Notes under the pieces: model-generated
Seen by the model: only the letters and a program-made list of their open reading frames with translations
Told to the model about the DNA's origin: nothing
Databases searched by the model: none
From: Escherichia coli phage KS_S14
Direction: 5' to 3' (one strand)
Sequence record: LC788706.1
Length of the DNA stretch: 64,000 nt
Program-made: the position numbers and the translations under genes
Shown: positions 7,663-31,078 of the stretch, in pieces
Layout: every line of letters begins with the position of its first letter
Numbering within the stretch: the first letter of the stretch is position 1

Positions 7663-8337
7663 ATGGGTCGACAAAAGCTAACAATAAAAGATATAAATAT
7701 TAGATTAGCTGATCGTGGAATCCAAATTGTCGGTGAGTATGTAAACCAACGTACAAAAACAGTATTTAAATGCCAGAGAGCACATGTTTGGGAAGCAACA
7801 CCACATTCTATACTCCATATGGGGAGAGGTTGTCCACACTGCTCCAATAATACAATATCGTTAGATGAAGTTAATAACAGAATATCTAATATAGGGTATA
7901 CTCTGTTAAGCAGCTATACTAATGCTAAAACAAAACTACATCTACGCTGCAATAATGGTCATGACTGTTTAATTACCTTAGATGGATTGACTCAAGGTAA
8001 GAGATGTCCTTATTGTTCTCTTAAGTGGGAGAATGGCGGATTCCTCTATATCATGTCCTCCTCTAGTGGTACTAAAGTAGGCATAAGCTTATACCCTGAG
8101 AAACGGCTGAATGAAGTTAAAAGAGAATCTGGATTTTCTGACCTATACTTGTTCACCATGTATCATCTGCCAGATAGAGAGACTGCTTTAGATTTAGAAA
8201 AGGAAGTTCACAGAGAATATTATAATAAAAACTGTGGGTTTTCTAATTTTACAGGAAGCACGGAATTTTTTAATGTTGCTCCTGAGGATATAGTAATCTT
8301 TCTAAGTAGCTTTGGATTGGAGGATTATGGCCACTAA
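7663..8337 (+). CDS. Putative homing-type endonuclease: duplicated zinc-finger module plus T5orf172/GIY-YIG-like domain
   Basis: Two repeats each ending in C-P-x-C (GCPHCS, RCPYCS); C-terminal GFLYIMSSSSGTKVGIS motif resembles the T5orf172 family; AGGAG 7 nt upstream of ATG. Confidence 0.5.
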   Translation: MGRQKLTIKDINIRLADRGIQIVGEYVNQRTKTVFKCQRAHVWEATPHSILHMGRGCPHCSNNTISLDEVNNRISNIGYTLLSSYTNAKTKLHLRCNNGHDCLITLDGLTQGKRCPYCSLKWENGGFLYIMSSSSGTKVGISLYPEKRLNEVKRESGFSDLYLFTMYHLPDRETALDLEKEVHREYYNKNCGFSNFTGSTEFFNVAPEDIVIFLSSFGLEDYGH

Positions 8338-15758: not shown

Positions 15759-16658
15759 ATGTACTACTCTCTAATGAGAGAGTCAAAAGTTATAGTTGAG
15801 TATGATGGTAGGGCATTTCATTTTGATGCCCTATCAAACTATGATATACAGACTTCCTACGAGGAATTCAAGACTCTTCGTAGGACTGTTCATCGTAGAA
15901 CTAACTATGCAGACTCTATTATAAATGCTCAAACCCCTTCTTCTATCTCTCTAGCAGTAAATTTTAGTAATACTCTTACTGAAGCTAACTTCTTTGAATG
16001 GTTAGGTTTTGATAGAAAAGGTAATACTTTCTTACTCCCATTATATAGTAATAATATTGAACCTATTATGTTCAATATCTATATAGTAAACAAAGATAAT
16101 AACTGTGTATATTTTGAAAACTGTTATGTATCTACAGTAGATTTTTCTTTAGATAAGAATATACCAATTCTTAATATTGGTATTGAGTCTGGGAAATTCT
16201 CAGAAGTATCTACCTATAGAGAAGCAGCTTCTATTATACAGGGTGAAGTAATGTCTTACAGCCCAGTAATAGCTTCTACTAATGGCAGCATCTTACCCGG
16301 TCTTATCTCTGCTTCCTTATCTTTCCAACAGCAGTGCTCCTGGAGAGAGGATAAGAGTGTTTTTGATATAAATAAAATTTATAATAATAAAAGAGCCTAT
16401 GTAACTGAAATGAATGCTTCGGCAACCATTTCTCTATACTACTTAAAACGTTTTGCAGGAGATATGGTTTACAATATCGAACCGGAGACAGATGTACCTT
16501 TAAATATAAGAAATAATAATATTTCTATAGATTTTCCTTCAGCACGTATTACAAAACGCCTAGAGTTCTCAGATGTGTATAGAGTTGAGTGGGATGTTAT
16601 ACCTACTGCTTCTTCAGACCCAGTGAGAATAGATTTCTTTGGAGAAATTAAAAAATGA
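15759..16658 (+). CDS. Tail-associated protein (p140-like)
   Basis: 299 aa; between the tail tube and the chaperone-like ORFs. Confidence 0.4.
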   Translation: MYYSLMRESKVIVEYDGRAFHFDALSNYDIQTSYEEFKTLRRTVHRRTNYADSIINAQTPSSISLAVNFSNTLTEANFFEWLGFDRKGNTFLLPLYSNNIEPIMFNIYIVNKDNNCVYFENCYVSTVDFSLDKNIPILNIGIESGKFSEVSTYREAASIIQGEVMSYSPVIASTNGSILPGLISASLSFQQQCSWREDKSVFDINKIYNNKRAYVTEMNASATISLYYLKRFAGDMVYNIEPETDVPLNIRNNNISIDFPSARITKRLEFSDVYRVEWDVIPTASSDPVRIDFFGEIKK

Positions 16659-17523: not shown

Positions 17524-17557
17524 TGGCTCTGGGTGATTTGCCCAGAGCCTTTTTTTA
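17524..17557 (+). terminator. Rho-independent terminator
   Basis: GGCTCTGGG-loop-CCCAGAGCC hairpin followed by TTTTTTTATT. Confidence 0.7.
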
Positions 17558-26887: not shown

Positions 26888-27310
26888 ATGAGTACTGAAA
26901 ATAGAGTTATAGACTTAGTAATAGATGAAAAAGTACCTTATGGTCTAATGATGCAATTCTTAGATGTTGATGATAGTACTTATCCACCTACAAATACCCC
27001 TGTTAACTTAACAGGGTATTCCCTAAGGGGTACTATAAAGGCGGGGCTTGATGAGAACGCGGAAACTTTGGCATCTTTTACTACTAAAATTATTGATGCT
27101 GCTCAAGGTGCTATAGCTATAAGTTTACCTGTAGAGGCGGTAGATAATATTGGTGAAAAAGCTACCAAAGAGAGAGATAAGTATAACCCTCGCCAACGTT
27201 TTGCAGGATACTATGATATAATTATGACACGAGATGTCATAGGATCAGCTATTAGCTCTTTTCGTATAATGGAGGGTAAAGTATTTATCAGTGATGGGGT
27301 AACTAGATAA
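26888..27310 (+). CDS. Small tail protein (p132-like collar protein)
   Basis: 140 aa; position between pb4 and the fibre genes. Confidence 0.45.
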
Positions 27311-28983
27311 TGGCAATAACTACTAAGATTATTGTACAACAAATATTAAATATTGATGATACTAAAGCTACTGCTAGTAAATTTCCTAGATACACAGTAA
27401 CTCTTGGAAATTCTATTAGCTCTATTACTGCTAATGAGTTAGTATCTTCTATAGAGGCTGCTGCTAAATCTGCTGCGGCTGCAAAAGATTCTGAAATAGC
27501 TGCTAAAACCTCAGAACTTAATGCTAAGAACTCTGAACAGAAAGCTGCTATTTCTGCTACTGAAGCAGGAAAACAAGCTACTAATGCTGCTAATAGTGCT
27601 AATACTGCTAAAACTGAAGCCGATCGTTCAAAAACTGAGGCTGATAGATCAGAAGCTGCTGCTAATTCTACCCCCGACATTCAACCTCTTCCAGATGTAT
27701 GGATACCGTTTAACGATTCTCTAGATATGATCACCGGCTTTGCGCCAGGCTATAAAAAAATAACAGTCGGTGATGAGGAAATAACACTGCCCAGTGACAA
27801 GATTGTTAGCTTTACACGTGCATCAACTGCGACATATATTAATAAATCAGGTGTATTAACTGTTGCGGGGATTGATGAACCTAGATTTGAAAAGGATGGT
27901 TTGCTCATTGAGGGGCAAAGAACTAACTATCATCTTAACTCACTTACGCCATCTAAGTGGGGAGCTACAACAAGTGTAACTATAACAGAAAGTGGTGTTG
28001 ATGAGTTTGGATTTACTTATGGGCGGTTTCAAATAAAGGACGAAAAAATTGGGACAAATACGGCAATGAATATCGCTGCGATTTCAGGAGGAAGAGGTGT
28101 CGATGTTACCGGAACTGAAAAGTATGTTACAACATCATGTCGTGTAAAAAGCGATAGTGCTAATATACAATGTCGTATAAGATTTGAAAGATATGACGGA
28201 TCCGCATATTTTTATCTAGCAGATGCATATCTTAATATAACAGATATGTCCATTAGAAAAACGGGAGTAGGGGCTGCAAGAATAACCGCCCGAGCGGAGA
28301 AAGAATCTAATGGATGGATTTATTTCGAGGTTACATATCAATCTGAAGCTATTGATAATATGGTTGGCTCTCAGATCCAAATTGCTCCACCTGTTTCACC
28401 TGGCACTTATTCTGGTGGAGAGTACTTACAGGTAGCTACCCCTCAAGTTGAAGGCGGGGCGTGCGCTTCATCGTTTATTATTACAGAAGCGACTCCAGTA
28501 ACACGGGCAAGCGATATGGTCACATTACCAATAAAAAACAACCTTTACAATTTGCCGTTTACAGTACTTGTGGAAGCTCATAAAAACTGGAGTATAACGC
28601 CAAATGCAGCGCCACGTGTTTTTGATACCAGCGGTCATCAAACCGGAGCGGCTATTATTCTTGCTTTCGGATCTGCCGAAGGCGATAATGATGGTTTCCC
28701 TTATTGCGATATAGGTAAATCAAACAGAAGGGTTTACGAGAATGCAAAACTAAAAAAGATGATCATGGGAATGAGAGTAAAGAGTGATTACAATACTTGC
28801 TGTGTAAGTAATGCCAGAATATCAAGCGAAACAAAAACGGAATGGAGATACATACAATCAACGGCTACTATAAGGATTGGAGGACAAACAACTACGGGCG
28901 GACGTCATCTTTTCGGGCACGTTAGAAACTTTAGAATCTGGCATAAGGAACTAACTGATAGACAAATGAAGGAGTATGTATGA
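27310..28983 (+). CDS. Tail fibre protein: N-terminal Ala/Lys/Ser-rich fibre-shaft repeats, C-terminal lectin-like (LamG-type?) domain
   Basis: N-terminal AAKSAAAAKDSEIAAKTSELNAKNSEQKAA... repeats resemble side-tail-fibre shafts; C-terminus ends ...HVRNFRIWHKELTDRQM, reminiscent of concanavalin-like lectin domains. Confidence 0.5.
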   Translation: MAITTKIIVQQILNIDDTKATASKFPRYTVTLGNSISSITANELVSSIEAAAKSAAAAKDSEIAAKTSELNAKNSEQKAAISATEAGKQATNAANSANTAKTEADRSKTEADRSEAAANSTPDIQPLPDVWIPFNDSLDMITGFAPGYKKITVGDEEITLPSDKIVSFTRASTATYINKSGVLTVAGIDEPRFEKDGLLIEGQRTNYHLNSLTPSKWGATTSVTITESGVDEFGFTYGRFQIKDEKIGTNTAMNIAAISGGRGVDVTGTEKYVTTSCRVKSDSANIQCRIRFERYDGSAYFYLADAYLNITDMSIRKTGVGAARITARAEKESNGWIYFEVTYQSEAIDNMVGSQIQIAPPVSPGTYSGGEYLQVATPQVEGGACASSFIITEATPVTRASDMVTLPIKNNLYNLPFTVLVEAHKNWSITPNAAPRVFDTSGHQTGAAIILAFGSAEGDNDGFPYCDIGKSNRRVYENAKLKKMIMGMRVKSDYNTCCVSNARISSETKTEWRYIQSTATIRIGGQTTTGGRHLFGHVRNFRIWHKELTDRQMKEYV

Positions 28984-29258
28984 GAGATATAATCCTAAAA
29001 TTCACGGATAAATCAGCATATAAAGATTTTCTCTTAAAAATAGAGTGGGATACTAATGAAAATTTGCAAAACCAAATAATGCTTGACGAAATTGGATATA
29101 CTTATACTGAAATCTCTCCGCTAGGTGATGAGGAACCTAGATGCATCCGTAATGAAGGGTATTATATTAATGTAAGGATTCTTGATGAATCCTTTACTTA
29201 CGAATCCTTCGAGCCTTTTATAGTTCAGCTAGAACAGCCTCTTAGAGTATGGGCATAA
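28980..29258 (+). CDS. Hypothetical protein between the two fibre genes
   Basis: 92 aa; stop/start overlap with upstream fibre gene. Confidence 0.4.
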   Translation: MRDIILKFTDKSAYKDFLLKIEWDTNENLQNQIMLDEIGYTYTEISPLGDEEPRCIRNEGYYINVRILDESFTYESFEPFIVQLEQPLRVWA

Positions 29259-29267
29259 GGTTTTATA

Positions 29268-31036
29268 ATGGTAACTAAAACAGTAATTCCTACGGATATT
29301 ACAAAACTTAAAAATGAGTCACTTAATAAAAATAATAACCTGAGTGACTTAGCAGACCGTGCAGCAGCATGGCTAAATGTGCGTCCTATTGGATCTACCC
29401 CTCTTGCTGGAGATCCTGTTAGTGACTATGATGCCGCAACTAAGCGTTGGGTGGAGAACAAACTTAATACTGGCACAGTAGGACCCACAATGAATGGTGT
29501 TATGAACTACGGGGTGGGGGATTTTCATCTTCGAGATAGCCGTGCGTATATTCAACCTTATGAGGTAGTTTCTGATGGGCAGCTTCTTAACAGGGCTGAC
29601 TGGCCTGAACTTTGGGCGTATGCACAAATGGTTGGAGCTATAGATGATTCAGTTTGGTTAGCAGATGTAGGACAACGTGGGAAATATTCTACGGGAGATG
29701 GTACCACTACTTTCCGCGTCCCAGATCGTAATGGTGTGCAACTAAATTCAATCAAAGGGTTATTCGCTCGTGGTGACGGTGGGGGGATGCTGGTCAAGCT
29801 GGTTCAATATCAGAAGCTGCAGCACCCAATATTACTGGTAGTTTTCCTGGCGCTATTGCTGGTGCATATGAAGAAGCGCTTAATAGATATTCATCTAGAT
29901 TTGGTCTTATTGGGGCGATTGGTGGTGAAAACGGCTTAGGTGCCGCTCCTGGAGGTGCATCTAAATCATTCGCCGTAGTTAATCCTGATAACCAATACGG
30001 ATTTAGTTTTGATGCAAACTTAGCGGACCCTGTTTATGGGCGTTATGGAATAAAAGGTACTATTATTCCAAACAGCTTTATAGGTGTCTGGGTAATCCGT
30101 GCTTCTGGTGGGTTCGTGGCTGCAAAGACTTCGTGGAGTGTTATTAGTGGTGATGCTGTCAAACCTAATACTGGTACTACTGTTTATGGCGGGAGTGTAC
30201 TATCTGAGTATAAAGTAGGTACTAGTAGTGAGGCTGTAAGTACACTACGAGCTAAAGCTACTATTGGTGGCACCTACTCTACTGAACTACTAATAGACAA
30301 TAAATCTACCGGTAAATCGAATTCCGCCCAGCTTGTAGATAATGGGGATTTTGTAACGGATCGTTTTAAAGCTAGATTAGTTACTGGCATGGCGTGGTCT
30401 CAGACTGGCTGGGTACAAGGTACTCTTTCTCAGAACGAGGTCAATATAGGTAGTACATTTAACTTTAATAGTATATTGAGCGGTTCCCAGTCTTCTTCCG
30501 CAGGGTATAAGACATCTGCACATTTTGGATTAATTCATAATGACTTAGGCTCATTTGCAGATTCTTGTTGGCAGGTAGCGGGAGATGATGATAATAAATT
30601 TGGTGTGCGTTTAAAAATTCAGCCGAATAATAATAGTATTTATTTTTATTCTTGGTGGCCAGGTGCTTCAGCAACCTATACTTTGCAATTAAATGCTGTA
30701 TCTGATTCTCGCTTAAAGCATGATATTAAGGCTATAGACGCAACTAAGTCCATCGAGGTATTAAAAGGATTAGAATTCCAATCCTTTGTATATAATAACG
30801 ATGAAAAATCTCGTGTCCGACGTGGGGTTATTGCTCAGCAAGTAGAGACTATAGAACCACTTTATGTAAAAACTAGAAAATTTTATAATGATGACGGAAT
30901 AGAGCAGGAGCAAAAGGAATTAGATACAACTCCAATGCTTCTTGACACTATGCATGTTGTGCAAGATCTTATTAAACGGATTGAAGATCTAGAGAAAGAG
31001 CTTGAGCAATTAAAGGTACAATTAGTATCACAATAA
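29268..31036 (+). CDS. Tail fibre protein with phage-tail-collar domain and C-terminal intramolecular-chaperone (S74-like) domain; reading frame interrupted at a G6 run
   Basis: N-terminal part (29268..29939) carries a collar-type motif (RADWPELWAYAQ...TTFRVPDRNG); C-terminal part (30116..31036, other frame) ends in a chaperone-like segment (SDSRLKHDIKAID...). The second frame is open from 29777, and a 1-nt shift at GGGGGG (29781-29786) joins both parts into about 589 aa. Confidence 0.6.
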
Positions 31037-31037
31037 A

Positions 31038-31078
31038 AGAAAACCCCAGTGGACAAAATCCACTGGGGTTTATTATTT
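31038..31078. terminator. Bidirectional rho-independent terminator between the convergent fibre and dut genes
   Basis: CCCCAGTGG-loop-CCACTGGGG hairpin flanked by an A-run upstream and a T-run downstream. Confidence 0.6.

Follow-up and report, generated by a model that had tools for sequence, protein, structure and literature searches.

The lateral tail-fibre locus and the reading frames of ltfB

The window analysed here is a stretch of 64,000 nucleotides from Escherichia coli phage KS_S14 (LC788706.1). It contains the genes ltfC, ltfA and ltfB next to dut and the gene of the D15 flap endonuclease. In full, the order is an LtfC-like gene, an LtfA-like gene, an ORF of 92 aa and ltfB, followed by the convergent dUTPase gene, the D15 flap endonuclease gene and D14. 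Because of these surrounding genes, and because the closest relatives of the window are Tequintavirus genomes 94-98% identical to it, KS_S14 can be regarded as a T5-like phage. The features referred to below are as follows.

26888-27310, plus strand: gene of an LtfC-like collar protein for attachment of the lateral tail fibres (LTFs); Pfam PF23926 LtfC, E 8.4e-15
27310-28983, plus strand: ltfA-like fibre gene (557 aa), whose product anchors LtfB
28980-29258, plus strand: conserved ORF of 92 aa between ltfA and ltfB (phrog_1361), found at the same place in all relatives
29268-31036, plus strand: ltfB, the gene of the second (branch) lateral tail-fibre protein; a single gene of 589 aa in relatives, with a -1 frame change here
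29268-29939, plus strand: upstream ORF, 223 aa, identical to BEU75852.1 of phage KS_S14
29777-31036, plus strand: downstream frame, LtfB residues 175-589 including the Peptidase_S74 chaperone domain, with its stop codon at 31034-31036
29781-29786, plus strand: G6 homopolymer, a putatively slippage-prone tract one base below the in-frame G7
31041-31071, no strand assigned: hairpin of a bidirectional intrinsic terminator between the convergent ltfB and dut

The hairpin of the terminator comprises 13-14 bp without mismatch, and T-runs adjoin it on both strands. The ltfA-like gene of the window carries a 717-nt in-frame deletion relative to that of mar004NP2, located in an Ala-rich repeat region just past the conserved N-terminus. 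The LtfA-like protein is 557 aa long in the window, 796 aa in mar004NP2, PMBT29 and SPLA5b, and 685 aa in OR896837. A contig from the public run SRR31518524 encodes a shortened LtfA like that of the window, with a 21-nt difference, and a contig from the run ERR11474195 a full-length one.

The initial annotation had located a GGGGGG run at 29781-29786 and described it as the point at which two halves of one fibre gene can be joined only by a one-base shift. Both statements proved correct. Translation from the ATG at 29268 reads …FARGDGGG and then runs through 49 codons out of frame to the stop at 29937-29939, yielding a product that consists of LtfB residues 1-174 and 49 out-of-frame residues. 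The downstream frame, directly preceded by a TGA (29774-29776), is open from 29777 to 31036, and the measured overlap of the two frames, 163 nt, agrees with the approximately 160 nt estimated before. The earliest start codon in the downstream frame is the GTG at 30116, which opens an ORF of 306 aa (BEU75853.1); the KS_S14 record annotates the two halves of ltfB as two hypothetical proteins.

Insertion of one G after position 29786 created a 589-aa ORF whose product is 100% identical (0 differences) to VCU43556.1 (orf135) of mar004NP2, which is annotated as 'tail fiber protein'. At the DNA level the absent G is the single difference from vB_Eco_mar004NP2 across the 1769-nt ltfB gene. The in-frame version reads GGT GGG GGG GAT (G-G-G-D); G7 is in frame, whereas both G6 and G8 are out of frame, and a seventh G thus restores the gene as the initial annotation had held. 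The junction peptide of a continuous LtfB across the tract would be …FARGDGGGDAGQAGS… or FARGDGGGDAGQAGSISEAAAPNITG.

Judged by its homologues, the region is a single gene, ltfB, which is predicted to encode the branch subunit of the Tequintavirus lateral tail fibre with a self-cleaving C-terminal chaperone domain. The match to phrog_6921 is continuous over aa 3-583 of the repaired protein (E 7e-181), the LtfA protein of phage DT57C (PDB 8hqz_d) aligns with aa 14-582 across the junction (E 6e-135), and relatives with clean sequence have one ORF, all of which upholds the earlier view that the two halves belong to one gene. The Peptidase_S74 domain (PF13884) was found at aa 479-531 (E 3.4e-12, 46.9 bits against a cut-off of 22). 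The ltfB orthologue of mar004NP2 has been named as MAR004NP2_00162 (orf135) (PMC6563131). Of the two fibre proteins of mar004NP2, the LtfA-like one bears the remark 'confirmed structural protein by MS' in the sequence record and the intact LtfB (orf135) does not; only eight proteins were detected in all, so that the missing remark is weak evidence.

The label 'tail-collar domain' given to the broken region is only weakly supported: the Pfam match lies below the threshold (17.4 bits against a cut-off of 24). The further statement that the break falls in the middle of such a domain was an overstatement, as the Collar match (PF07484) covers only aa 138-155, corresponding to profile positions 38-54 of 57, and ends 17 residues short of the tract, which encodes aa 172-174. 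In an alignment of 40 family sequences the conserved N-terminal module ends at the tract, which closely follows the motif F-A/G-R-G-D-G-G, and a segment variable in length and sequence starts there. The AlphaFold2 model of the LtfB monomer was poor, with a mean pLDDT of 53.6 and values below 50 for aa 154-191.

These data also bear on the suggestion that the locus is an old, fixed pseudogene or consists of two separate functional genes. The annotation of two separate hypothetical proteins in the record speaks for it. However, past the break the sequence matches the intact gene of mar004NP2 with zero substitutions and therefore shows no decay; 30116 is the first position at which the downstream frame offers a start codon; no terminator and no notable promoter was found between the two halves; and homologous profiles run continuously across the break. 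We consider this explanation scarcely credible.

Length of the G tract among relatives

The comparison with orthologous fibre genes that the initial annotation had called for was carried out, and close relatives were found to hold one ltfB gene with either G7 or the synonymous sequence GGGGGAG. In the INPHARED phage collection, 11 distinct genomes carry the ltfB tract in the following forms.

G7: mar004NP2, PMBT29, phA11, phC11, phC17
GGGGGAG, a synonymous interrupted tract: JLBYU40, Lindwurm, WP85, PH204
G10, one extra Gly: SPLA5b
G13: OR896837

In all four genomes with the interrupted tract it is 7 nt long and in frame. Five more metagenome-derived contigs (IMG/VR, ENA, Logan) all have G7, bringing the number of genomes or contigs with this allele to 10. 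Scans for tract alleles yielded one contig each from IMG/VR and from the JGI/ENA metagenomes, both with G7, and a scan of the GTDB genomes found no further alleles. JLBYU40 differs from the G7 contigs of IMG/VR and of a human-gut metagenome by 2-6 substitutions in 0.9-1.4 kb, and this near-identity indicates that the synonymous G-to-A change interrupting the run is recent.

G6 was found in the window and in the Logan contigs from the runs SRR31518524 and ERR11474195, both of which encode exactly the 223-aa product of the window. The ERR11474195 contig is identical to the G7 phage mar004NP2 at all 2835 other positions, the tract base being the lone difference. Further alleles were deduced from protein records. 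In P0136, an N-terminal allele clearly unlike that of the window runs into an identical out-of-frame tail (…GDGGGMLVKL…), which corresponds to G6, and P0131 (421 aa, starting with MTVGGDAGQ) is explicable by G8 alone; G8 and the G6 of this other lineage are read from these two protein sequences only. The record P0133 is a 306-aa ORF in another ltfB allele.

The genome OR896837, named mar004NP2 and obtained from a UK freshwater sample, has its ltfB annotated as three 'tail fiber proteins'. Besides G13, the gene contains a 3-nt deletion, a G5-to-G4 change and an extra A. With three indels besides the tract in a single gene, this consensus sequence is probably poor, and its G13 is not to be trusted.

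To relate the variation of the tract to its background, 2117 nt comprising the small ORF, ltfB and the terminator were aligned for 10 near-identical strains of the mar004NP2 clade. The alignment contains eight segregating substitution sites, seven of them singletons, and tract lengths of 6 (three strains), 7 (five strains), 10 and 13. All indels outside the tract are private to OR896837. From an expected background of ~0.026 events per 7 nt, the Poisson probability of at least three events is ~3e-6, and that of at least two events, with OR896837 left out, ~3e-4. The run as such is not enriched over chance, since three G/C runs of at least six occur in the 64 kb at 39% GC; it is the length polymorphism among relatives, not the run itself, that exceeds chance. 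As far as alignments can tell, the tract is best described as a putative mutation hot spot, with lengths of 6, 7, 8, 10 and 13 in almost identical phages. Miscalling of G runs by a sequencing platform would look like such hypermutability, a caveat that applies to the G10 of SPLA5b and to the Logan runs. If real, the in-frame G10 and G13 alleles would fit a loop of variable length across the family.

In the 10-strain alignment no SNP separates the three G6 strains from the G7 strains and none proves an independent origin of G6. With no shared derived SNP, one lineage and several independent events are both possible. The occurrence of G6 on two LtfA architectures and in the lineage of P0136 favours recurrence.

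Origin of the G6 allele

Three explanations of the split gene had been put forward at the outset: a sequencing or assembly error, programmed slippage, and a slippage-prone tract switching the fibre on and off. The last is the best supported of the three, in view of tract lengths of 6, 7, 8, 10 and 13 in near-identical genomes. We think it reasonably probable that the G6 of KS_S14 is a genuine slipped-strand -1 variant of a hypermutable G7 tract, probably reversible, which switches LtfB off. The codons GGT-GGG-GGG-G would present an uninterrupted G7 prone to slipped-strand mispairing during DNA replication, and KS_S14 would have the run minus one G. Translation from 29268 would then depart from the LtfB frame after Gly174 and end at 29939, and residues 175-589, with the receptor-binding and chaperone parts, would not be made within a fibre, leaving LtfB in the OFF state. 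G6 would accordingly be the true sequence of the KS_S14 isolate and the state of the tract would be reversible. Since the tract seems to gain and lose bases easily, reversion can be expected at high frequency, and the tract would behave like a contingency locus of the phase-variation type.

The strongest competing explanation is a consensus error, that is, that the phage has G7 and an intact ltfB and one G was dropped from the deposited sequence. The tract base is the sole difference from mar004NP2 in the 1769-nt gene, homopolymer indels are the most frequent consensus errors of several platforms, and records of the ltfB family do contain such errors (OR896837 with its three extra indels, VSe12 with three homopolymer indels). 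NG_A1, deposited by the same submitters, has a one-base homopolymer deficit in ltfB as well. On the other hand, G6 was independently assembled in two public runs from other archives (SRR31518524 and ERR11474195), and across the 64-kb window, which contains 47 homopolymers of at least six bases including a single G run of this length, no further frame-breaking homopolymer indel was detected relative to mar004NP2. At position 7801, where mar004NP2 differs, it is the window that has the intact version. Moreover, the dispensable ltfB is the sole gene hit in both phages of the submitters, a pattern that resembles selection and not random error. Weighing these observations, we regard a consensus error as somewhat unlikely.

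The other homopolymer differences between the window and mar004NP2 are A6 against A5 at 16650, at a gene end, and T7 against T6 at 17550, in an intergenic spacer. The stretch 7663-8337 of the window is one ORF of 224 aa, and the corresponding stretch of mar004NP2 (LR027384) is occupied by two overlapping ORFs (68322-68522 and 68477-68995). This split is caused by a one-base difference at window position 7801 (ACACCACA against ACACACA), and the frameshift seems to belong to the reference mar004NP2, not to the window.

In NG_A1 (LC788705.1; Shinjuku sewage, same DDBJ series) ltfB is split into ORFs of 204 aa and 302 aa. The break is at GGTTTTTCACC (locus coordinates 2060-2075), where NG_A1 has a T5 run and EC100 and VSe12 have T6; it represents a second ltfB-specific homopolymer -1 change. 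The ltfB of VSe12 (MN022787.1), annotated in pieces, differs from those of NG_A1 and EC100 by C5 instead of C4, C4 instead of C5 and T5 instead of T6, and these indels look like platform homopolymer errors. A frameshift common to NG_A1 and VSe12 was considered and rejected, VSe12 having three different homopolymer indels of its own. Several other truncated N-terminal ORFs of LtfB with lengths of 165-322 aa are present in ~100-kb T5-like contigs from Logan and ENA (P0142-P0146), with breaks at differing positions, and public assemblies commonly contain such ORFs. Throughout the family, disruption or mis-assembly of ltfB seems unusually frequent. No publication on KS_S14 or NG_A1 was found.

Programmed recoding would make the G6 sequence functional: full-length LtfB would be produced through -1 ribosomal slippage on GGG-GGG, or through slippage of RNA polymerase, in a set ratio to the truncated form. 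After moving back by one base, the P-site tRNA-Gly could pair again without mismatch (GGG to GGG), the next codon would be GAT and the product exactly the G7 protein; G6 was, in addition, found repeatedly, in several assemblies. The distribution of the alleles is against such a mechanism. With five G7, four GGGGGAG and the in-frame G10 and G13 among the 11 INPHARED genomes and G7 in five of five metagenome-derived contigs, the two-frame layout is not conserved: the tract is in frame in the DNA of 16/16 relatives, and 15/16 have a single ORF, the exception being the G13 record OR896837, which is broken by other indels. The zero frame is GGT-GGG-GGG-ATG, so that T-GGG-GGG or G-GGG-GGA would be out of register, and T-GGG-GGG-A does not conform to X-XXY-YYZ. 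The 100 nt downstream (29787-29886) fold with -21.6 kcal/mol as compared to a shuffle mean of -26.1 (z = +1.36), which is worse than shuffled sequence; in 186 of 200 shuffles the fold was equal or better. The out-of-frame tail of 49 aa is not a conserved product, the 64-kb window contains no tRNA genes, and for transcriptional slippage to be efficient, six consecutive G are few. Trace read-through on G6 by slip-back of tRNA-Gly is possible in principle. Nothing indicates an evolved recoding signal at the tract, and such a signal is rejected. With a shift that is not conserved, no stimulatory structure and a heptamer that is not canonical, the proposal of programmed slippage fails, and we consider recoding highly improbable.

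For the preferred reading, a slipped-strand variant, the biology of the lateral fibres offers a plausible setting. The LtfB of DT57C-type phages is carried by LtfA and has a second O-antigen as its target. LTFs are essential on hosts that produce O-antigen, but rough strains, C600 among them, can be infected without them (PMC10713586). About 30% of the clones of DT571/2 grown on C600 had spontaneously lost LTF function, and the authors concluded that LTF-less mutants are very frequent or favoured on this strain (PMC4728585). Where a host lacks the matching O-antigen, T5-type lateral fibres can be dispensed with, and loss of ltfB would therefore be tolerated there and perhaps favoured. Homopolymers of at least 6 nt were described as reversible contingency loci in T2/T4, and such repeats are under-represented in tail-fibre genes (PMC12633550). 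Variation of the tract may have adaptive value; given the lack of enrichment over chance and the under-representation in fibre genes, there is no evidence of selection for its mutability.

It is conceivable, but in our judgement unlikely, that the uninterrupted G7 is a maintained contingency locus in one clade of T5-like phages, each lysate containing LtfB-ON and LtfB-OFF virions as well as virions with in-frame Gly insertions. If this were true, the phage would be hedging between hosts with the cognate O-antigen and hosts on which the branch fibre is useless or slows its spread, the synonymous GGGGGAG would be a 'locked-ON' allele, and the T5 family would have its first described phase switch in a receptor fibre.

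The branched lateral fibre has two arms that recognise O-antigens. LtfB is one of them, so that part of the host range depends on whether it is produced. Unless G7 is confirmed, the host range of KS_S14 should be ascribed to LtfA and the central receptor-binding protein only. Differences in G-run length between otherwise identical T5-like genomes cause annotation pipelines to split or merge ltfB repeatedly, and fibre-ON and fibre-OFF particles may occur side by side in phage stocks meant for therapy or biocontrol. As a candidate contingency locus in a model phage family, located within a receptor-binding gene, the tract can be tested cheaply.

Comparison with known systems

The closest parallel is provided by the LtfB proteins of DT57C and DT571/2 (Golomidova et al. 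2016, PMC4728585; Ayala et al. 2023, PMC10713586). The loci have the same order (ltfC-like, ltfA-like, ltfB, convergent dut), the proteins share the C-terminal Peptidase_S74 chaperone domain, residues 526-1072 of DT57C LtfA align with the conserved module of KS_S14 LtfB (E 6e-135), and LTFs are dispensable on rough hosts and often lost in culture. They differ in that KS_S14 has the 92-aa ORF between ltfA and ltfB, and in that the spontaneous losses reported for the DT57C group were deletions and recombination between ltfA and ltfB or were unmapped; no homopolymer on/off tract has been described there.

Like the ltfB tract, the contingency loci of T2/T4 described in a 2025 preprint (Gomez, Barrick and Waters, PMC12633550) are homopolymers of at least 6 nt within coliphage ORFs. 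Reversible +/-1 frameshifts occur at them, at 1,000-10,000 times the rate of point-mutation reversion (PMC12633550). Unlike ltfB, the loci demonstrated are A-runs in agt and rIIA, not in fibre genes or in T5-like phages.

The programmed -1 frameshift of the lambda G/GT genes is similar in that two overlapping frames of the tail module are joined by a -1 shift. It is, however, conserved across phages, uses a slippery heptamer and yields two products that are both needed, and none of this holds for ltfB.

Hypermutable polyG tracts were reportedly described by Sorensen et al. in 2021 in receptor-binding/structural genes of Campylobacter Fletchervirus phages. There, as proposed for ltfB, length changes by slippage in receptor-binding/structural genes result in mixed ON/OFF progeny and altered host range. 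The Fletchervirus tracts comprise ~9-13 G and several occur per genome, in contrast to the single tract (G7 form) of KS_S14, and their variation within single lysates was reportedly shown by experiment, whereas the ltfB tract was compared between genomes only.

In lambda PaPa a one-base frameshift in stf is said, after work by Hendrix and Duda in 1992, to split the side-tail-fibre gene into two ORFs. Here too a fibre gene is split, in this case that of a laboratory phage, the fibres being dispensable on K-12 and their loss leading to larger plaques. The stf change, unlike that in ltfB, became fixed in the laboratory, and the site is not documented to vary in length among wild relatives. Requiring no new mechanism, the ltfB tract belongs with the contingency loci of phages and with the stf frameshift of lambda PaPa.
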